From: Parcubacteria group bacterium GW2011_GWA2_42_14
GTDB lineage: Bacteria > Patescibacteriota > Minisyncoccia > Sungbacterales > GWA2-42-14
NCBI GenBank assembly: GCA_000998135.1
Contig: LCCV01000004.1
Span: forward strand, 21,681 to 85,680
Direction: 5' to 3'
DNA: 64,000 nt
Notes under the pieces: model-generated
Told to the model about the DNA's origin: nothing
Seen by the model: the letters and a program-made list of their open reading frames with translations, nothing else
Databases searched by the model: none
Made by a program: the position numbers and the translations under genes
In this document: piece after piece, positions 3,693 through 29,968 of the stretch
Layout: each line of letters opens with the position of its first letter
Numbering within the stretch: the first letter of the stretch is position 1

Positions 3693-4238
3693 TCACTCAA
3701 TAAAATCAAGTTCGTCTAAAGATTTTTCGTAGCCGTCAATGGCCTTGTCAATTTCTTGGCGAGAAACAGGCCGGTTGGGGTCATGAGCTATTAAATTCCT
3801 GATTTTGTGCGCTTCCCACAATTCATCAATGGAATTAAGTTTGGAGCGGTCAAATTGTTTCAGCCGTTCTCCCATAGTTTCTCCCTGAAGGCCGATACGC
3901 TTCAGTAAATCGTCCGTAATGGAGTCGGCTTCAATTACGGCGAGTTTCCAGTCGGATGGATTGGGAGAGGCGGCTTTGTCCAAAACGCTTTGCCATTTTT
4001 GGGAAACATCAGTTTTCATGGAATCCGGAATTTTTCCGAAACTTTCTTCAACTATTTCTTCTATCGCTTCAAGCGCGGTTTTTTTAGGGCGGCGCAAACG
4101 GAAAAATAGAACATTTATATAAACGATGGCGGCAAAAAATATTATGGAAAAAAAACCGGCAAAAATTTTAATCCAAAAAATCAGGGTTTCTCCGCCCGAA
4201 GAATAAAACCAGTCTAAAAAGTTAAAATAAAGTTCCAT
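3693..4238 (-). CDS. hypothetical membrane protein
   Basis: 181 aa with hydrophobic N-terminal segments. No recognised domain. Confidence 0.4.
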   Translation of the reverse strand: MELYFNFLDWFYSSGGETLIFWIKIFAGFFSIIFFAAIVYINVLFFRLRRPKKTALEAIEEIVEESFGKIPDSMKTDVSQKWQSVLDKAASPNPSDWKLAVIEADSITDDLLKRIGLQGETMGERLKQFDRSKLNSIDELWEAHKIRNLIAHDPNRPVSRQEIDKAIDGYEKSLDELDFIE

Positions 4239-4454: not shown

Positions 4455-5918
4455 TCATAAAATTTTTTCCAATTGCGCGGCTATATTAAAAACTCTATCC
4501 TCCTGAAACCACGGGGCGATAAACTGGATTCCGACCGGCAATTTTTTACCTTCTTGCTCAACCCCTCGGCCATGCTCGGGGTAAACCCATCCGGCATTCA
4601 TGGAAAGGCCGGGCAAGCCCGCTAAATTGACGGCAACCGTGTAAATATCGGCCAAATACATTTTTAACGGGTCATCAGTTCTTTCTCCGAATTTAAACGC
4701 GGGGGTCGGAGAGGTCGGCCCGGCAATGATATCAACTTCTTTAAACGCTTTTTCAAAATCTTCTTTAATTAACCGCCTGACTTTCTGGGCCTTAAGATAA
4801 TAAGCGTCATAATAACCGGCGGAAAGCGTATATGTTCCGAGCATTATCCGTCTTTTTACTTCATCTCCAAAACCCTCGGCCCGCGTTTTAGCGTAGATAT
4901 CGTATAAACTTGTTTCTTGTCTCTTGTCGCTTGTCACTAATCCATACCGGATTCCATCAAACCGCGCGAGATTAGCCGATACTTCCGCCGGCATAATTAT
5001 ATAGTATGCGGCTAAAGCATATTCAGATATAGGCAAAGATATTTCCTTTATTTCATGGCCCAAGTCCTGAAGTTTTTTTATCGCATCACGTACAATTTTT
5101 TCTACATCAGAATCAAGGCCCTGACCAAAATACTCTTTAGGCAGTCCGATTTTGAATTTAAGATTTGGGATTTGGGATTTGGGATTTGATTCGACAGTTG
5201 TCGAATCTAACGGGTCTTTTCCCTTAATCACATCAAAAACAATTTTGGCGTCTTCAGCTGTTTTGGTTAAAGGACCGATTTGGTCAAGCGAAGAAGCCAT
5301 TGCTATAAGACCAGAACGCGAAACCATGCCATAAGTCGGTTTTAGGCCCACAACTCCGCAAAAAGAGGCGGGCTGACGGATGGAGCCACCGGTATCAGAC
5401 CCAAGGGCGGAAATACACATGTTTGCCGCAACAGCCGCGGCAGAACCGCCGGAAGAGCCGCCCGGAACGCAAGATGGGTCATGGGGATTTTTAGTCGGTT
5501 TAAATGCGGAATTTTCGGTTGAAGAACCCATGGCAAATTCATCCATATTGGTTCTGCCCAAAAAAATCGCACCTGTTTTTTTCATACGGGCAATAGCAGT
5601 CGCGTCATAGGACGCTTCGTAGTTTTCCAAAATTTTTGACGCGGCCGAGACACGTTTTCCCTCAATAAAAATATTGTCTTTAACAGCAAAAGGAATGCCC
5701 CAAAGAGGGGGCAATTCGTTAAAATCGGACGTTGCTCCATCCAGCCGTTTTGCTTCATTAAGCGCGTCTTCCCCATAGACCTCGAGATAGGCATTCAGTT
5801 CTTTATTTTTATCAATCGCTTTCAGGCAATCAGAAACAAGCTCTGCTATGGAAAATTTTTTGCTCCGTAAACCATCCTGAACTTGTTTAATTGTTAATTC
5901 GCAAAGCTCCATTCTCAT
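4455..5918 (-). CDS. gatA: Glu-tRNA(Gln)/Asp-tRNA(Asn) amidotransferase subunit A
   Basis: Amidase signature GGSSGGSAAAVA. 487 aa. Ends in TGA. Contains a repeat-derived in-frame insert (5148-5220). Confidence 0.9.
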   Translation of the reverse strand: MRMELCELTIKQVQDGLRSKKFSIAELVSDCLKAIDKNKELNAYLEVYGEDALNEAKRLDGATSDFNELPPLWGIPFAVKDNIFIEGKRVSAASKILENYEASYDATAIARMKKTGAIFLGRTNMDEFAMGSSTENSAFKPTKNPHDPSCVPGGSSGGSAAAVAANMCISALGSDTGGSIRQPASFCGVVGLKPTYGMVSRSGLIAMASSLDQIGPLTKTAEDAKIVFDVIKGKDPLDSTTVESNPKSQIPNLKFKIGLPKEYFGQGLDSDVEKIVRDAIKKLQDLGHEIKEISLPISEYALAAYYIIMPAEVSANLARFDGIRYGLVTSDKRQETSLYDIYAKTRAEGFGDEVKRRIMLGTYTLSAGYYDAYYLKAQKVRRLIKEDFEKAFKEVDIIAGPTSPTPAFKFGERTDDPLKMYLADIYTVAVNLAGLPGLSMNAGWVYPEHGRGVEQEGKKLPVGIQFIAPWFQEDRVFNIAAQLEKIL

Positions 5919-6333: not shown

Positions 6334-6417
6334 TCATTCACTAATTTTATTCGCGAATATTCGCGAAATAATTCGCAATTGATTAGTGATTTTGGAGATA
6401 TTCAGAAACCCTTTTTA

Positions 6418-6774
6418 TCAGTTCCGAAGGGTCAATATTGGTTTTACCAAAAAATCCACGATATTAAGTTTTTCGGTGGCTTCGCGATATTCTTCGCGGC
6501 CGTAATTCGTAAGCATCATTACCGGAATTTTTTTAAACTCTCCTTGTTCCTCATTATTTTTAAAACATCTAAGCCGTCAAGTTTCGGCATGCGTATATCA
6601 AGAATCACAAAATCCGGGTTTTTCCTGTTGAATAAGCTCAGGGTCTTCTTTTCCATCCTTGGCAAGCAAAACCTCCATCCCTTTGTTATTAAAGAGTTTT
6701 TTATAAAGAGTCAGAAGCACCGGGTCGTTGTCAACAACCAAGATTATTTTCTTTGTTTCGTTTTCTTGGGGCAT
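6418..6774 (-). pseudogene. CheY-like response-regulator receiver domain with two compensating frameshifts
   Basis: N-terminal (MPQENETKKIILVVDNDP...EKP) and C-terminal (EFKKIPVMMLTNYGREEY...FLVKPI) segments are in one frame. The central DFVILDIRMPKLDGLDVLKIMRNKE segment is in the +1 frame. The frame-1 reading hits TGA after KPGFCDS. Confidence 0.5.
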
Positions 6775-6844
6775 ATAGTTTTAATGATAAATTACCTTAA
6801 TACAAAAATCAATTCTTTAAATTCCAAAATTTGGATTCATAATC

Positions 6845-6958
6845 TCAAAAAATCCAAAATCCTAATACCCAAATCCCGAATAAATTCAAATTTTAAAATT
6901 CAAAATAGTTTCAACATTTGGTCATTCGGGATTTGAAATTTTGAATTTGGGATTTCAA
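6845..6958. repeat. MITE-like repeat, family F1 (AAATCCCAAATCCCGAATAAATTCAAATTTTAAAATTCAAAAT ... inverted partner)
   Basis: Internal inverted repeat. Homologous copy at 10631-10752. Fragments lie inside gatA and gatB. Confidence 0.65.
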
Positions 6959-6987
6959 TATGCTGAATTTGTTTACTATTTATGGCT

Positions 6988-9219
6988 TCATTTAATAATA
7001 TTTAAAAATTCTTCCTCACTCAATATTTTTACTCCAAATTTCATGGCCTTATTATATTTTAAACCCGGATTTTCACCAGCAACGACATAATCAGTTTTTT
7101 TGTTTACACTTTCAGATATTTCTCCGCCCAAATTGCGGATTTTTCCTTTGGCTTCGTCTCGCGTGAACGATTCTAATTCCCCGGTCAGAACAAACGTTTT
7201 ATCTTTAAACTTGTGTTTTTTTGGTTTTTGGGATTCAATTTTAATTTTTAAGCCAGCTTTTTTAAACCTGTTTAAAAGTTCCCGATTTTTTTTGTCCCGG
7301 AACCAGTTATAAATGCTTTTGGCAACGACACCGCCTATGTCTCGGATTTTTTCCAGTTTTTCCGGTGAGGCCAAATTTAAAGCATTAATTGAACCGAAAT
7401 TTTTGGCAAGGTCAATTGCCGTTTCTTCTCCGACATGATGAATTCCGAGAGAATAAATAAAACGGTTTAATTCAATCGTCCTTTTTTGATTTATGGACGC
7501 GATTAACTTAGAGGCGGATTTTTCGGCAAAACGCTCCAGCGGCTCCAGTTCTTCTTTTTTCAGAGTAAAAATATCAGCCGCGTTTTTAATCAGTCCCGAT
7601 TCAATCAGCGCGTCAATTATTTTCGGGCCGAGACCCTGTATATCAAAAGCTTTTTTGGAAATAAAATGATAAAGTTTTTCGCGCTCTACCGCGCCGCAAT
7701 TTTTATTGGAGCAGTAATAGGCAACGCTAAATTCCTGTTTCTTGTCAGCGCTTTCTATTTTTTTTACCGGCGAGTTGCATACGGGGCAATGAAGCGGCAT
7801 ATGAAATTCTTTCGCGTTTTTTGGGCGCAGACGCCGCAAAACTCCGGTAACCGCGGGAATCACGTCTCCGGCCCGTTCGACTATGACCGTATCGCCGGTT
7901 CTCACATCAAGTCGGCGAATTTCATCTATGTTATGAAGAGTGGCATGAGTAACGGTTACTCCGCCTATTCTTACCGGTTTTAATGTTGCCACCGGAGTTA
8001 AAACTCCGGTTCTTCCGACCTGAACGATTATATTCTTAACAATGGTTGTCGTTTCCTCGGCAGGAAATTTGAAAGCGATAGCGCCTCTCGGAGCTTTTCC
8101 CACAATTCCTAATTTTTCAAAAATTTTTCCGTTATTTATCTGTATCACTACGCCATCAATTAAAAAGGGAAGTTTTTCCCTTTTTCTTCCGACCTCTTTC
8201 CAAAATTCAATAATTTCGTTCGTGTTTTTACAATGTTTCGTAAGCGGTACTGTAGGGAAACCAAGTATTCTCATAATTAAATGTTCTTCCTCGTGGGTTT
8301 CTTGGCCGAGATTCGTAACCAAATCCCAGGCAAAGAATTCAAGGTTTCTTGACGCGGTAATTTTTGGATTAAGCTGTCTTATGGAGCCCGCGGCGATATT
8401 TCGGGGATTGGCAAAAACCGGCAACCCTTTCTTTTTCTGTTCCTTGTTTGCCGCGTTAAACGCGTCTTTGGGCATATAAACTTCGCCTCTTACTTCAATT
8501 TCAGTAATTTTATGGATTGATGAGAGGAATTGCTTAACGCGCGGATATTTTTCAAGAATAATTTTTATTTCCTTGTGTTTTTTGGATAATTCTACGATAT
8601 TTTTTTGTATGCTCAGCGGGATTGATTCCACTGTTTTTAAGTTTTCCGTAACGTCTTCGCCGGTAATTCCGTCTCCGCGGGTTGACCCCGTTAGAAGTTT
8701 AAATAAAATGTTACTTGATTCAAGGGGCATAAGGCGAAAGCCGTTTTGCTTTAAGCTGTTATTGTCATAGTTGGCGTGTTGCCGGACTCCTAACCGGATT
8801 GAGCCGGTTTTAAAAACGCCGTTTTTATAAATGAGAGATACGGCAAAACCGTCGCCCTTGGCTTCGGCAAAATAATCTAATTCTGAAACATGAAACTTGA
8901 AATCTGAAACAAGTTTTTTGATACGGGTTTCCCATTCATGAAGTTCTTCTTCGGAAAAAGCGTCATTTAAAGAAGTCATGCGAACCGTATGCGCAACTTT
9001 TCTGAATTTTTCCAAAGGATTGCCGCCGACCCTTTGCGTCGGCGAATCCGGTGTTAAAAACTCGGGGAACTGTTTTTCGAGTTTCATCAGTTCGTTTTTT
9101 AGGGAATCCAAAGCGGCGTCGGAAATTTCCTGTTTGTCCAAGACATGATAAAGATAGCGGTGATAATTGATTTCTTTTTTTAGTTTTTCTATGCGATCAA
9201 AAACCCTTTTTTTATCCAT
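6988..9219 (-). CDS. ligA: NAD-dependent DNA ligase
   Basis: 743 aa. Adenylation K-x-DG region, Cys4 zinc finger (CPVCNSP...CSNKNCG), HhH and C-terminal BRCT. Ends in TGA. Confidence 0.9.
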   Translation of the reverse strand: MDKKRVFDRIEKLKKEINYHRYLYHVLDKQEISDAALDSLKNELMKLEKQFPEFLTPDSPTQRVGGNPLEKFRKVAHTVRMTSLNDAFSEEELHEWETRIKKLVSDFKFHVSELDYFAEAKGDGFAVSLIYKNGVFKTGSIRLGVRQHANYDNNSLKQNGFRLMPLESSNILFKLLTGSTRGDGITGEDVTENLKTVESIPLSIQKNIVELSKKHKEIKIILEKYPRVKQFLSSIHKITEIEVRGEVYMPKDAFNAANKEQKKKGLPVFANPRNIAAGSIRQLNPKITASRNLEFFAWDLVTNLGQETHEEEHLIMRILGFPTVPLTKHCKNTNEIIEFWKEVGRKREKLPFLIDGVVIQINNGKIFEKLGIVGKAPRGAIAFKFPAEETTTIVKNIIVQVGRTGVLTPVATLKPVRIGGVTVTHATLHNIDEIRRLDVRTGDTVIVERAGDVIPAVTGVLRRLRPKNAKEFHMPLHCPVCNSPVKKIESADKKQEFSVAYYCSNKNCGAVEREKLYHFISKKAFDIQGLGPKIIDALIESGLIKNAADIFTLKKEELEPLERFAEKSASKLIASINQKRTIELNRFIYSLGIHHVGEETAIDLAKNFGSINALNLASPEKLEKIRDIGGVVAKSIYNWFRDKKNRELLNRFKKAGLKIKIESQKPKKHKFKDKTFVLTGELESFTRDEAKGKIRNLGGEISESVNKKTDYVVAGENPGLKYNKAMKFGVKILSEEEFLNIIK

Positions 9220-9466: not shown

Positions 9467-10621
9467 TTAACACTGCCACGCCGGATCTCCCGGGTCTCCG
9501 GTCGGCTTTTTATAGTTATATTCCTTTAAAACTTCATTATCCTGAAGGGTTTTTGAAAAAATTTTTATTTCATCCATAATTCCCTGGAAATTCTGGGCTA
9601 AATTATCAATATTTAATCCGAGTCGCAGCGGTTCATTGCCCTGAGTCAGACTTTCTCCGCGGGGGATAGGAGAGCCTAAAATAATGCCGTTTATATAAAA
9701 TCTTACCTGCGACCCGTCGTAAGTAACCGCGGCATGCGTCCACCTGTTGAGGGTGGTTGCTCCGACCGCGGCGGAATCAGTCGTGAATTCCGTTCCGGCC
9801 GAATCTTTAAATTTAAAACGCAAGTTAAAATTTCCGGTTACCGGCTGGAACAGATAAAAACCGTATGTTTCTTCGGTAGCCCCCGCTCCTTTTTTTAAAA
9901 TAGTTTTGTATCCGTTGACAGCGCTTTTATTACAAACCCAGGAGGTTATGGAAATCGGCCAGTTGAGATTTATGCTTGATGAATTTGGAAACGTTACGCG
10001 GTCATTTTCCGTGTCAAAATACTGCAGTGCTCCGCCGAATACTACCAGCGGAATCGTATTTTGTCTTATTGGGTCTTCTGTTTCAACGCTTGTGGAAAGA
10101 CCCAAAACGCCGTCATTATCGTTGGCCGTCCAGTCAAAAACCGTTTGGCTTGATTCATTGTCAAATCTCCACCAGCCCGCCAAGTTCTCTGCTTCAAGCA
10201 TGGGATACTTAAAAAAGAACGAGCGCTTGGAAAGAAATGAGGAAGTTGTGTCACAGGGCGATCCTCCCGGATATTGTCCTACTCCTAGAATTTCAGTGTA
10301 GCCGGTTCCGGTTTTTTTTGACACTTTTACCGAATTGCAGGCGTTGTTGGAGGCGGTTATTAGCGGGGTGGTCCAGCAATCGTTTGAAAGATTCTGACAA
10401 ATGGCACGGGAAACTCTGTCAAGATAAACCGTTTTTTCAACTATTTCGTCAGCCGCGTAAAGCGCGAAAAACGATGCTCGTATGTCGCCGGAAAGCATAA
10501 GTTCGCTGTAAATAATATCAAATATTCCGAGGGAAATTGAGAGCATTAAAGAGAGCAAAAAGACGGTAAGGAGAAGACTTATACCTCGTTCTTTTTTTAA
10601 TTTTTTCTGCCGCGCTTTCAT
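9467..10621 (-). CDS. pilus-associated protein: N-terminal hydrophobic pilin-like segment plus C-terminal LamG (concanavalin-like) domain
   Basis: MKARQKKLKKERGISLLLTVFLL... N-terminus. C-terminal RFYINGI...FQGIMDEIKIF resembles LamG. Last gene of the pilin operon. The upstream in-frame ATG at 10660 lies inside repeat F1. Confidence 0.5.
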   Translation of the reverse strand: MKARQKKLKKERGISLLLTVFLLSLMLSISLGIFDIIYSELMLSGDIRASFFALYAADEIVEKTVYLDRVSRAICQNLSNDCWTTPLITASNNACNSVKVSKKTGTGYTEILGVGQYPGGSPCDTTSSFLSKRSFFFKYPMLEAENLAGWWRFDNESSQTVFDWTANDNDGVLGLSTSVETEDPIRQNTIPLVVFGGALQYFDTENDRVTFPNSSSINLNWPISITSWVCNKSAVNGYKTILKKGAGATEETYGFYLFQPVTGNFNLRFKFKDSAGTEFTTDSAAVGATTLNRWTHAAVTYDGSQVRFYINGIILGSPIPRGESLTQGNEPLRLGLNIDNLAQNFQGIMDEIKIFSKTLQDNEVLKEYNYKKPTGDPGDPAWQC

Positions 10622-10630
10622 ATTGTTTTT

Positions 10631-10752
10631 AAATCCAAAATCCCAATATCTAAATCTCAAATAAATTCAAATTTCAAAATTCAAATTAGTTTCGGCATTT
10701 GGTCACTTGATTTTTGATATTATTTAGGATTTGAGATTTTGAATTTGGAATT
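10631..10752. repeat. MITE-like repeat, family F1 (second copy)
   Basis: Aligns with 6845-6958 over about 115 bp. Confidence 0.65.
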
Positions 10753-10763
10753 TTAAAGGAATT

Positions 10764-11342
10764 TTAAAGGTTGACATCTCTCACTCTCTGCGTTACCGTT
10801 GTCTGCAAATTCATCGTGGTGTAAAGCCGGAGCTTGGGGTCAAAGGCCTTGGCTTTGAAAGAAATGGTTAAGCGGGGCTGGCCGTCATCGCCGGCAGAGT
10901 CAGTTCCGGTAACCCTTATGATTAACGTTTCAACAATAACTTCCGGCGCGGTTACCGGAGTGCCGTTGGCGCAATCGGGGTCAGTTGTCCAATTGTTTAT
11001 TTTATAAATTCCGCCTGGTAAATCGGGGTCGGGTCCGCTCGGACCATCGGGGTCGGGCGGGTCATAAAAAGCATATCCTATCGCGTTATTGAACTGGTCG
11101 CGAAAATTAATTTGGGTATTGCTTTGTCCGTTGCAGGCCTCAAGCAAAAAACCGGTTCCGGTTCTTATTTCTTTGGTAATGGATTCAATCCCGAATCTGA
11201 CGTTATCCACGACATTTTGAATGGCCGCGGCTTTATATTGGGCGTTTTTGGCGGCAACTAAAATATTGGCGGTTACCATCGCCACGAAAGCAAAAATTCC
11301 CAAAGCTACGGTTGTTTCAAGAAGTGATACTCCGCGTTTCAT
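10764..11342 (-). CDS. type IV pilin-like (minor pilin or pseudopilin)
   Basis: MKRGVSLLETTVALGIFAFV: class III signal, G then VSLLE with Glu at +5. Confidence 0.65.
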   Translation of the reverse strand: MKRGVSLLETTVALGIFAFVAMVTANILVAAKNAQYKAAAIQNVVDNVRFGIESITKEIRTGTGFLLEACNGQSNTQINFRDQFNNAIGYAFYDPPDPDGPSGPDPDLPGGIYKINNWTTDPDCANGTPVTAPEVIVETLIIRVTGTDSAGDDGQPRLTISFKAKAFDPKLRLYTTMNLQTTVTQRVRDVNL

Positions 11343-11409
11343 GAATCATTAATCATGAACCATAAATCATTAACTACTTGTTCAATGTTTTATGTTCCAA
11401 GTATAAAGT

Positions 11410-12078: not shown

Positions 12079-12145
12079 GAATCATGAATCATGAATCATG
12101 AATCATGTTTTATATTACATGTTCCATGTTTCATGTTTCATCATA
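12079..12145. repeat. heptamer tandem repeats (ATGAATC)x4 and (CATGTTY)x3 abutting the pilin start codon
   Basis: Read directly from the sequence. A degenerate version lies at 11341-11375, upstream of the second pilin. Confidence 0.8.
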
Positions 12146-25203: not shown

Positions 25204-25346
25204 TTGTTTATCCAAAAAAATTTAAGGCATGAACTAAAATTAACACAGTCGGCAACGTTTTTTTGCAAAATTAGTTAAGGTCTGTTACTATGTATTGTAG
25301 ATATAGAGATTGTGAATTGTGTTATGAAATGCAGTTTTTACTCGTT

Positions 25347-25376
25347 TCATAATTCATAATTCATAATTCATAATTC
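25347..25376. repeat. heptamer tandem repeat (CATAATT)x4 abutting the GTG start of the next gene
   Basis: Read directly. Confidence 0.8.
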
Positions 25377-25802
25377 GTGAAAAGTGTGGTAATTTGCGGT
25401 TCACAACGATACAAAGAGGAAATTAAAAAATTTGCCAACCGGCTTAGGGAATTAGGCGTGCCTATTGTTTTTGAGCCGAATTTTGAGCGGCAACGGAAAA
25501 AAATGCTTGCGAAAGCCGAAAAAGAGCGATTGAAAATTAAATCATATAGAGACAGGGTACCCGCAATGGTGCATGAGCATTTTGATAGAATAAGAAAAGC
25601 AGATGTTGGATACTTCTATAATAAAAACGGTTATTTAGGAGTTAATTCAACGCTGGAACTCGGATTTGCCCACGGGAAAAATATGGTTATATACGCCCTT
25701 GAACCGGAAAGGGAGGTTGCCGAAGGAGGAGAAATCTGCCGTGATATTCTTTATACGGAAATAATTGAAACGCCGGAAGAATTAGTGAAGCGATTAATTT
25801 GA
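25377..25802 (+). CDS. nucleoside 2-deoxyribosyltransferase / DNPH1(Rcl)-like protein, paralog A
   Basis: Flavodoxin-like pattern: VVICGSQRY ... FYNKNGYLGVNSTLELGFAHGK (the conserved ...GT.(F)ELG.A.. glutamate motif) ... IYAL. GTG start. Paralogous to 27569-28027. Confidence 0.5.
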   Translation: MKSVVICGSQRYKEEIKKFANRLRELGVPIVFEPNFERQRKKMLAKAEKERLKIKSYRDRVPAMVHEHFDRIRKADVGYFYNKNGYLGVNSTLELGFAHGKNMVIYALEPEREVAEGGEICRDILYTEIIETPEELVKRLI

Positions 25803-27433: not shown

Positions 27434-27568
27434 TTGCAAAAAACGCTCGTAATTCTGCGGGCTTTTTTTATTGAATGGAGTGTGATATGCTTTAGAGACA
27501 AGTGACATGGGACATGCGACAAGGAAAATTAAACCCTTGTCTCCTGTCTCTTGTTTCATGTCGCTAAG

Positions 27569-28310: not shown

Positions 28311-28390
28311 TGTCATCCTGAGGCCGTAGAGGCCGAAGGATCTCTTATTCGATTATTTTTTAGAGATTCTTCGCTTCGCTCAGAATGACG
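28311..28390. repeat. MITE-like repeat, family F3 (CGTCATTCTGAGG ... GAAGAATCTC ... GAGATTCTTC ... TCAGAATGACG)
   Basis: Nested inverted repeats. Other copies at 42337-42429 and 44187-44269. Confidence 0.6.
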
Positions 28391-29968
28391 TCAGAAAAAT
28401 TGGCAACCTATGCGCCAGTAATCGGCCTAGAAATTCACGCTGAACTAAACACCAAAACCAAGATGTTTTGCGATTCTTTGAATGACCCGGATGAAAAACA
28501 TCCCAATCTTAACATTTGTCCTGTTTGCATGGGGCATCCCGGAACTCTGCCCGTCATCAATCAGGAAGCGGTAAAAAAAGTAATTCAGGTGGGTTTGGCG
28601 CTGGGAGGAGAAATTCCGGAATTTTCGCAATTTGACAGGAAGAATTATTTTTATCCGGATTTGCCCAAGGGGTATCAGATTTCGCAATATAAGTATCCGC
28701 TTGTTCAAGGCGGAGTTTTAGAGATTGGCGGCAAGAAGATTCGCATTACCCGAATCCATCTTGAAGAAGATGCCGGGCGGCTTATTCATGAAGGAGGCCC
28801 TTCGACAAGCCCAGGGCGACAAGCTTCGCTTGTTGACTTTAATCGCGCGGGGCGGCCTCTTATGGAACTCGTAACCGAGCCGGATTTAAGAAGTGGAGAA
28901 GATGTTCGTGTTTTTGGGGAAAAGCTTCAGCAGATTTTGCGGTATGTCGGGGCTTCAAACGCTGACATGGAGAAAGGCGAAATGAGGGTTGAAGTGAATA
29001 TATCACTTCGACAAATCCCAAATCCCAAATCCCAAATCCCGAATAAATCCGAAATTCAAAATTCAAATGACCCAAACACCTTCGGTACTAAAGTAGAAAT
29101 TAAGAATATAAACTCATTCAAATACGCGGAGGATGCGGTGAATTATGAAATTAAAAGGCAGACGGAAATTCTTGAAAGCGGAGGGAAAATTGTTCAGGAA
29201 ACAAGAGGGTGGAATGAACGAAAGGGCGAGTCATTTTCCCAACGTTCTAAAGAAGAATCTCATGATTATCGCTATTTCCCCGAGCCGGATTTGCCCCCCT
29301 TGAATATTTCCCGTGAATTAGTTGAGGAATTAAAAGGTTCATTGCGTGAATTGCCGGAAGCAAAAAAATTAAGATTTATTGATGAATATGGTATTGACGC
29401 AAAACTGGCGGAAATAATTGTGCGTGAAAAAGCGTTGGCGGATTATTTTGAAAGCGTTGTTTCGGAAGTTAAAGAATGGGAAGCTTCTACTCCAGAAACG
29501 ATTAAGGTCCAACCTTCCGCGGGAGGTCAGACCCTGAACCTTGCTCGTCTGGCAGCCAATTTTATAACTGGCGATTTTTTGAAACTTTTGCATGAAACTT
29601 CGGCATCTGTTTCGGAAACCTTGATTACTCCTGAAAATTTCGGCGAATTTTTAACATACTTGGCCGAAGACAAAATTTCTTCAGCCGGCGCCAAAATAGT
29701 TTTTGAAGAAATGTTTAGGACGGGTGCTGACCCTTCGGAAATTATCCGCGATAAAAATATGCTGCAGGTAAAAGATAGTTCGGAACTGGAAGCAATAATT
29801 AAAAAAATTATTGAAGCCAACCCCAAACCGGTTGATGACTATAAAAAAGGTGCCCAAAATTCTTTGCAATTTTTGATGGGACAGGTAATGAAAGAAACAA
29901 AAGGGCGGGCTAACCCAAAAATGGTTCAGGACCTGATTCAAAAATTTATTGAAGTCAGACTTCCATAG
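28385..29968 (+). CDS. gatB: amidotransferase subunit B
   Basis: YAPVIGLEIHAELNTKTKMFC..., and a C-terminal GatB/YqeY-type domain. Contains a repeat-derived in-frame insert (29012-29068). Confidence 0.9.
   Translation: MTSEKLATYAPVIGLEIHAELNTKTKMFCDSLNDPDEKHPNLNICPVCMGHPGTLPVINQEAVKKVIQVGLALGGEIPEFSQFDRKNYFYPDLPKGYQISQYKYPLVQGGVLEIGGKKIRITRIHLEEDAGRLIHEGGPSTSPGRQASLVDFNRAGRPLMELVTEPDLRSGEDVRVFGEKLQQILRYVGASNADMEKGEMRVEVNISLRQIPNPKSQIPNKSEIQNSNDPNTFGTKVEIKNINSFKYAEDAVNYEIKRQTEILESGGKIVQETRGWNERKGESFSQRSKEESHDYRYFPEPDLPPLNISRELVEELKGSLRELPEAKKLRFIDEYGIDAKLAEIIVREKALADYFESVVSEVKEWEASTPETIKVQPSAGGQTLNLARLAANFITGDFLKLLHETSASVSETLITPENFGEFLTYLAEDKISSAGAKIVFEEMFRTGADPSEIIRDKNMLQVKDSSELEAIIKKIIEANPKPVDDYKKGAQNSLQFLMGQVMKETKGRANPKMVQDLIQKFIEVRLP

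Follow-up and report, generated by a model that had tools for sequence, protein, structure and literature searches.

A gatB loop insert in a Parcubacteria genome is probably one arm of a dispersed palindromic repeat

Where does the long loop in the GatB protein of this Parcubacteria bacterium come from, and does the motif NPKSQIPN that it shares with GatA say anything about the GatCAB enzyme? The question is raised by a single locus in the window, the whole stretch of 64,000 nucleotides analyzed here. Judged by sequence similarity, the host gene is gatB (28385..29968, plus strand), an ORF of 527 amino acids whose product resembles the solved GatB chain 3al0_B over its full length (E 7e-132); GatB homologues carry PF02934 and PF02637, the GatB_N catalytic domain and the GatB/YqeY tail. 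Between the conserved EVNISLR and GTKVEIKN blocks of this gene lie 24 in-frame codons, QIPNPKSQIPNKSEIQNSNDPNTF (29012..29083, plus strand). Two heptamer arrays delimited by Tandem Repeats Finder, (CAAATCC)x4.7 at 29012-29044 and (AAATTCA)x2.3 at 29052-29067, are joined by GAATAAATCCG, and the 3' end of the insert, AATGACCCAAAC, matches the loop start of a full palindrome. The same AAATTCAAATGACCCAAAC is present in the insert and in a non-genic copy of the repeat, L093.

A sequence-only reading of the window held that the EVNISLR block and the next one are contiguous in typical GatB. They are not, since a loop of about 7 residues (R plus PxGxExF) normally separates them, and this is the commonest state, found in 69 of 118 close homologues. 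In alignments to three solved GatB chains (3al0_B, 3h0l_B and 2df4_B) the insert corresponds to 17 gap columns, and the net gain is 17 amino acids, with a loop of 24 residues here versus 7 in the solved structures. In an AlphaFold2 model computed from 62 homologues, with a mean pLDDT of 84, residues 211-233 follow strand 200-210 and precede strand 236-242; they occupy the tip of a beta-hairpin, and the 10-residue blocks across the insert have pLDDT values of 68, 51 and 73. The comparison shows that, in the GatB cradle domain, the insert extends the loop at this hairpin tip to 24 residues, where about 7 are usual. In the folding analysis the insert DNA has no fold of its own, and it is a single arm that is not itself palindromic. 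A phmmer search of 1.84 billion representative proteins with the 30-aa insert peptide, a query that is too short and too biased in composition, returned one weak match.

The DNA of the insert has relatives elsewhere in the window. Allowing up to two mismatches, the 14-mer AAATCCCAAATCCC has 15 matches in the window against 1.8 expected, a count reached in none of 100 shuffles. Arrays of period 7 are in excess as well: Tandem Repeats Finder lists 15 rows where 1.6 are expected, and periods of 7, 14 or 21 account for 11 of the best 12. By blastn, the gatB insert is 85% identical over 55 nt to an intergenic locus, ig1 (6850-6904, E 6e-8), and it also aligns with a second one, ig2, at 10631-10686; in both cases it is the A-rich arm that is matched. 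With an nhmmer profile of the arm, the window yields six arms at four loci, one in gatA, two each in ig1 and ig2, and one in gatB, with E-values from 1.5e-14 to 2e-11, and nothing else. The intergenic loci are full imperfect palindromes of about 115-130 nt, each just downstream of a minus-strand gene: ig1 (6848..6960) lies 3' of the DNA ligase gene (6988..9219, minus strand), and ig2 (10627..10759) lies between the minus-strand genes 10764..11342 and 9467..10660. Their folds have z-scores of -3.9 (ig1, minus strand) and -4.8 (ig2), and on the minus strand the ig1 hairpin is followed by TTTTTT. It is this T-run after ig1, together with the position of the palindromes, that raises the idea of a terminator role. 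A consensus terminator scan misses both palindromes, whose stems are AT-rich and long, and an Rfam scan of the window has no match on them, a single tRNA being its only match.

The same arm is widespread outside the window. JGI metagenome contigs scanned for the exact arm pattern AAATCYNRAAYAAATYCRAAWTTYAAAATTC contain it in at least 118 stretches (119 matches listed), and such a search by exact pattern inflates the apparent sequence conservation of the family. Among the matches listed, 72 of 119 lie on the sense strand of stretches that run without a stop for at least 150 aa (phases 36:20:16), and a long antisense ORF is found at only 3. This bias towards the stop-free orientation, 72 versus 3 among the matches listed, argues for the predicted translation of the arm. 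Taken together, the 71 distinct host ORFs of these listed matches hit 90 Pfam families, among which are class I aminoacyl-tRNA synthetases (14), CysRS (5), glycosyltransferases (5), MnmA (4), GatA, GatB, SecA, TsaD, MiaA and Mur ligases (3 each), and PheS and UvrD (2 each). Alignment to solved homologues shows the element as extra sequence in MnmA and TsaD, an insertion of about 12-18 aa. Unrelated conserved genes thus carry the arm in frame at positions that the fold can accommodate, the site in the GatB loop being taken from the AlphaFold2 model. In TsaD and PheS orthologues among the matches listed, the element sits at the same site in different phases. These phase differences were considered as proof of independent insertions and set aside, as heptamer units gained in one array and lost in the other, in compensation, could also shift the inner frame.

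Genic and non-genic copies differ in extent. Under strict criteria, and among the matches listed, a second arm is detected in 1 of 72 genic copies and in 12 of 47 non-genic ones; visual inspection shows it in most of the non-genic copies listed, which run on through AAATGACCAAAAC, the loop and the T-rich arm. Full foldbacks also occur inside the 23S rRNA genes of L171 and L202. The anchored profile of the genic arms has a sharp left edge, with no conserved flank and no duplication, and gives, among the matches listed, a consensus arm of about 66 nt: (AAATCCG)x4, AAAC, AAATTC, (AAAATTC)x3, AAAA. This consensus has no stop in any of its three frames, which read KSEIRNPKSETNSKFKIQNSK, NPKSEIRNPKQIQNSKFKIQN and IRNPKSEIRNKFKIQNSKFK, whereas none of the three frames of its reverse complement is free of stops. 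The stops in the second arm would explain why half-elements are found in genes and full palindromes between genes and in 23S rRNA.

Beyond the metagenomes, a 24-nt core with up to four mismatches has 12 matches, and none in shuffles, in 1.19 Mb of sequence around gatB from 80 Patescibacteria species; the matches belong to Yanofskybacteria, Parcubacteria and Paceibacterota records. The best locus in the genome-contig scan is 62% identical. The flanks of two orthologous loci, L001 and L002, were searched and contain no intergenic copies. Viral contigs hold a single match to the family, which is therefore not typically phage-borne. With four loci in the window, the metagenome copies and the Patescibacteria loci, this is a dispersed multi-copy repeat family, referred to here as F1. 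The sequence-only reading had the insert in the right place, and its description of an F1-derived, in-frame insert in a gatB loop is borne out by homology to the dispersed repeat of the window.

Most probably, then, the gatB insert copies, in frame and on the sense strand, the A-rich arm and first loop bases of a dispersed imperfect-palindrome repeat. It would be translated into a flexible surface loop outside catalysis, and it would persist since the GatB loop tolerates it. Inside genes only single sense arms would survive, and full palindromes would be kept between genes, in terminator-like positions, and in rRNA. As to the copying into genes, the stable hairpin that lies directly 5' of many genic copies suggests a structure-directed step, either insertion targeted by a hairpin or polymerase stalling followed by template switching. 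A genic copy is half a palindrome, and neither an insertion intermediate nor a target-site duplication nor an associated enzyme was found, so 'mobile element' is a term that we infer from the distribution of the copies.

Could the loci instead have grown by themselves? If slippage had acted separately in gatB, in gatA and at the intergenic sites, without any copying from one locus to another, this would agree with the strong over-representation of period-7 arrays in the window. It would also agree with the lengths of the element, which among the matches listed fall into classes of 45, 52, 59, 66 and 73 nt, i.e. steps of 7, and with the orthologue L002 (65% identical), in which every unit is AAATCCG where the window has AAATCCC. 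This last observation fits either sub-families of a source element or homogenization within the array. Local microsatellite growth is nevertheless very unlikely. An AAATCCN array, an AAAC/GAAT junction, an AAATTC array and an AATGACC-AAAC loop start follow one another in this order in gatB, ig1 and ig2, and the same composite order is found in about 110 copies from other genes and genomes among the matches listed; independent slippage would not rebuild it. In addition, the arrays are identical in all strain-level variants of GatB and GatA, with no variation in copy number, and for this reason a phase-variable simple sequence repeat or contingency locus was also rejected.

The motif common to the two subunits led to the earlier suggestion of convergent co-option or co-selection on GatCAB. 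Under this explanation NPKSQIPN would be a selected, GatCAB-specific surface peptide, involved for example in partner binding or complex assembly. The motif is indeed present in GatA, and both genic copies of the window lie in GatCAB subunits. But three heptamers make 21 nt, or seven codons, and any frame of (AAATCCC)n encodes cyclic KSQIPNP; all three frames of the arm encode a nearly identical hydrophilic peptide rich in K, N, S, Q, I and P. The motif is common to GatA and GatB because their shared heptamer DNA gives KSQIPNP in every frame, and therefore neither convergence nor co-selection is needed. We infer that the identical peptide is a by-product of heptamer DNA. Nor is the insert a feature tailored to GatCAB, because dozens of essential genes in related uncultured bacteria, unrelated to one another, have the same repeat in frame, the arm being present in proteins of 90 Pfam families among the matches listed.

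The gatA copy points in the same direction. The gatA coding sequence (4455..5918, minus strand, 487 aa) does contain a related copy at 5135..5195 (minus strand), an incomplete arm composed of (AAATCCC)x3.9, AAATCTT and AAATTCAAAATC, which encodes SNPKSQIPNLKFKI; what follows the (AAATCCC)x3.9 array is AAATCTTAAATTCAAAATC. The gatB insert had been presented as the counterpart of a gatA insertion, and to this extent it is. However, compared with three solved GatA chains, the linker at the copy lacks 5 residues and, judging from this comparison, the copy brings no net insertion and no gain in length. In the closest relative, L085, whose GatA is 79% identical, the gatA arm is longer and is split by a nested GC-rich palindrome. 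The low pLDDT in the GatB loop of the AlphaFold2 model also speaks against a selected surface peptide, as do the closest non-self GatB sequences, which have either the canonical loop or unrelated inserts.

Relatives show how freely this loop changes. In the 118 close GatB homologues, the loop has the canonical 7-8 residues in 69 and at least 12 residues in 46. The inserts are of unrelated kinds: F1-like in 9 sequences, PTTNNQRPTT, QATGDKRQAE, EIADQRG..., and others, and the nearest relatives have an insert family of 33-34 aa. Many of these inserts are DNA palindromes, and that of L048 has further copies in its own locus. In a neighbor-joining tree without support values, read together with pairwise identities, F1 is scattered. 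The carrier P0001 is nearest to P0002-5, which have a different insert, and to P0008, which has the canonical loop; the carrier P0009 is 88% identical to P0051, with a canonical loop; the carrier P0010 is 87% identical to P0024, with a different insert; and P0022 and P0033 are 90% identical with unrelated inserts. Comparing the filled loop of P0009 with the canonical one of P0051, the change looks like a replacement rather than a clean insertion. These sequence comparisons point to repeated gain and replacement of GatB loop types. The GatA linker varies in relatives in the same way; like the GatB loop, it is a hypervariable landing site for repeats in this group.

Conservation also bears on the argument for selection on GatCAB. 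The check across strains that the sequence-only reading had proposed finds the gatB insert identical in four independently recorded strain-level sequences. In the syntenic orthologue L001 (88% identity across 356 aligned residues) the insert is kept over a divergence of dS ~0.8. The dN/dS check proposed in the same reading, run against L001, finds that 5 of the 72 nt differ, with one non-synonymous change and four synonymous ones; dN is 0.018 and dS 0.34 in the insert versus 0.088 and 0.84 in the rest of gatB; 13% of the 25-codon windows of gatB are at least as conserved. The numbers are small, and they suggest that a neutral loop would have changed more than the insert has, and that there is some constraint on the peptide or on the DNA. 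With 1 non-synonymous against 4 synonymous changes, small as these numbers are, the insert is therefore not in free drift, and it is old; this does not point to a role specific to GatCAB. A selected GatCAB surface peptide is, on balance, highly improbable.

The constraint might also act on the DNA itself. The repeat would then be a cis-element, such as a DNA-uptake or protein-binding signal, and its genic copies would be tolerated by-products. The high DNA conservation across genomes is in keeping with this, and so is a dS lower in the insert than in the rest of gatB, a difference that rests on 4 substitutions. The DNA uptake sequences (DUS) of Neisseria form inverted pairs downstream of genes, and the inverted pairs downstream of genes seen here are alike. 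An adjoining hairpin is enriched as well. The hairpin GTTGAAGTGAATATATCACTTCGA, with a 9-bp stem and a 5-nt loop, lies directly 5' of the gatB insert, in the EVNISLR codons (28988..29011, plus strand). At -9.1 kcal/mol it is matched in stability by only 0.8% of the 24-nt windows of gatB. It is also found, with identical synonymous positions, in the F1 carriers L001 and L002, and it is absent from the nearest non-carriers, P0003 and P0008 (-1.7 and -3.4 kcal/mol). Directly 5' of the gatA copy lies another hairpin, GTTAGATTCGACAACTGTCGAATC (5188..5211, minus strand), made in part of the conserved DSTT codons; its -9.9 kcal/mol puts it in the top 1.4% of gatA windows. For 62 genic metagenome copies among the matches listed, the upstream 24-nt window belongs to the most stable 10% of its gene in 34% of cases (binomial p 3e-7), versus 10% for downstream flanks. 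The hairpins differ in sequence, for instance among three TsaD orthologues. Across GatB loci, the EVNISLR codons of insert carriers show more pairing (p 0.009, not corrected for phylogeny). The 5' hairpin is a lead to the insertion mechanism, not an established part of it.

Against selection for a DNA-level signal, the density of four loci in 64 kb is low, the element is long at about 66 nt, and stop codons alone explain its orientation in genes. We consider such a cis-element to be very unlikely. A DNA uptake sequence in the strict sense, with a short core present about once per kb, was rejected for the same low density and length. Programmed translational bypass, as in T4 gene 60 or the mitochondrial byps, does not apply either, given the unmatched flanking CGA and GGT codons and the stop-free frame, and an intein or intron is dismissed on the absence of matching codons, the open frame and the orientation bias. 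An assembly or sequencing artefact is next to impossible: repeats of low complexity are error-prone in short-read assemblies, but identical proteins come from NCBI, JGI and ENA records and from several contigs, the reading frame is intact, and an orthologue from another sample has the insert with point differences.

Palindromic repeats in frame in genes have a known parallel. The Rickettsia palindromic elements (RPEs) are the closest analogue, and their behavior matches that of F1. RPE copies are also present in RNA genes, as F1 copies are in 23S rRNA here. As summarized in one account (PMC10969869), RPEs are palindromic dispersed repeats found in frame in many unrelated housekeeping genes (Ogata et al., 2000, 2002), and the peptides that they encode are predicted to be tolerated by the fold and function of the host protein. 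That account describes a palindromic dispersed family of 100-150 bp, between genes and in frame in housekeeping genes, for which it gives no known transposase (PMC10969869), all of which is like F1. The host here belongs to Patescibacteria and not to Rickettsia; no sequence relation is expected, and membership of an RPE family is not claimed. The gatB copy is not itself palindromic, unlike an inserted RPE; ig1 and ig2 are. F1 differs further in that its genic copies are single arms (a second arm in 1 of 72 among the matches listed), as every frame of the other arm is interrupted by stops. Its arm consists of two heptamer arrays with three open frames that give nearly the same peptide, its length varies by 7, and a hairpin is often found at its 5' edge. 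What sets F1 apart from RPEs is the single arm in genes, the frame-neutral heptamer arm and the frequent adjoining hairpin.

Other repeats resemble F1 in part. Small non-autonomous repeats of the MITE type, such as ERIC, Coxiella QMITE1 and those of Anabaena, can also form in-frame fusions with host ORFs (PMC10969869, PMC5896051). In contrast to them, no terminal inverted repeats around a distinct core and no target-site duplication were identified for F1, the whole element being a foldback, and no candidate for a parent insertion sequence was seen in the window. Heptanucleotide tandem repeats (STRR) were reportedly found in cyanobacteria by Mazel and colleagues in 1990. Beggiatoaceae have intergenic TAACTGA repeats (PMC4679880). 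These two share with F1 a genome-wide excess of period-7 tandem arrays, mostly intergenic, but they have other units, occur in other phyla and are not described as composite palindrome arms or as inserts that recur in frame in essential enzymes. In bacteria of the Candidate Phyla Radiation (CPR), insertions in rRNA genes (introns and encoded proteins) were reportedly described by Brown and colleagues in 2015. The same group of organisms thus tolerates insertions in highly conserved genes, although those are introns or encoded proteins and not a 66-nt coding repeat in protein genes. A non-exhaustive literature search found no description of F1 in CPR bacteria, and no match to its DNA or peptide consensus.

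A more far-reaching proposal goes beyond the origin of the gatB insert, and we put it forward tentatively, as a possibility that is rather less likely than not to hold. The arm may be an undescribed DNA-spreading unit of Patescibacteria, a frame-neutral, heptad-periodic segment of about 66 nt copied strand-specifically beside DNA hairpins into the loops of essential enzymes, and as foldbacks into rRNA genes and gene ends. Within this proposal, insertion would be directed by structure and not by sequence, or would take place through template switching at stalled forks.

Although the genomes of Patescibacteria are very small, copies of one conserved repeat occur in their essential, slowly evolving enzymes and in their 23S rRNA. 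Why the arm is tolerated has a ready explanation, since all of its frames are open and specify the same hydrophilic peptide. Such inserts inflate apparent divergence and loop lengths in CPR protein alignments and structure predictions, and they can pass for lineage-specific functional motifs, as happened with the motif of GatA and GatB. They also provide a marker for recent insertion events, and the hairpin beside many copies is a concrete handle on the insertion mechanism. If the proposal of a DNA-spreading unit is true, new surface loops would be made repeatedly across the phylum.

Tandem arrays with a period of 7 are strongly in excess across the whole window, where Tandem Repeats Finder returned 15 rows against the 1.6 expected from second-order Markov resamples. 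Among the rows with a score of at least 45, 11 of 12 have a period of 7, 14 or 21. Heptamers in tandem make up nearly all of two short spacers between co-directional genes (11343-11409 and 12079-12145) and of the stretch immediately 5' of a GTG start at 25377 (25346-25376). The units at these three sites are (TCATGAA)n and (TTCATAA)n, every one of which contains both an ATG and a TGA. These arrays call to mind the TAACTGA repeats that lie between genes in Beggiatoaceae (PMC4679880).

On the minus strand, gatA carries a (CTTGTCT)x3.9 array (4909-4935) that encodes ...SDKRQETS... and leaves the length unchanged with respect to solved GatA; a related array, CTTGTCTCATGTCT, lies at 27536-27562. 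GatB has a second, lineage-specific insertion of ~22 amino acids (residues 363-384, about 29471-29536), placed after the helical domain and before the YqeY tail, and its DNA includes the imperfect GC-rich palindrome GGTCCAACCTTCCGCGGGAGGTCAGACC. Small GC-rich hairpins such as CCTGCCTCGCCGACAGGCAGG and TCCGCCAGCCGGCGGA make up a second family, repeatedly nested in or beside the A-rich arms and encoding motifs such as SAGG, PADG and LAGRQA. This family is found in gatA of the relative L085 (10560-10690), in the gatB loop of L210, and in L139, L151 and L108.

Other GatB homologues carry inserts of their own. In another Paceibacterota genome (L048), the loop that receives F1 in the window holds a 63-nt double palindrome (10568-10630) that differs from the window's insert, and 25-26-nt copies of it, 100% identical, recur at 3977-4079 and 4749-4763 of the same locus. 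Repeat-like inserts are also present in some lineages in a second GatB loop, between GGxLxI and RIRITRxHLEED (proteins P0105, P0017 and P0057), that of P0105 being the F1-like FPNKSQISNSKDQKG. On a Patescibacteria contig (L006, 383-2623), the GatB match spans 2241 nt for ~519 query residues, a sign that the gene may contain a further large insertion somewhere along its length, such as an intein or an extra domain.

Between the ligase gene and gatC lies a response-regulator gene (6379-6800, minus strand), which appears truncated: its ORF (6598..6774) has only 58 amino acids, versus 130 in the L085 orthologue. A frameshift or a misassembly could account for the short ORF, or the gene could be a pseudogene; the plus-strand ORF 6379..6936 (185 amino acids) is probably spurious.

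At sites orthologous to the window's intergenic F1 palindromes ig1 and ig2, L085, whose GatA and GatB are 79% and 88% identical to those of the window, has ~120-nt foldbacks, each followed by a T-run (8716-8907 and 5048-5230). Their units, CTAATTA and ACCTAAT, are unlike those of ig1 and ig2, and the centre AAATCC-TAATGAC-AAATG is the sole part in common. This looks like concerted evolution of the arms within a genome. Full palindromic F1 copies also occur within the 5' portion of genes for 23S rRNA, identified by Rfam LSU matches, in L171 (about 4776-4806) and twice in L202 (5361-5391 and 5579-5609), so that F1 makes rRNA expansion hairpins as well.
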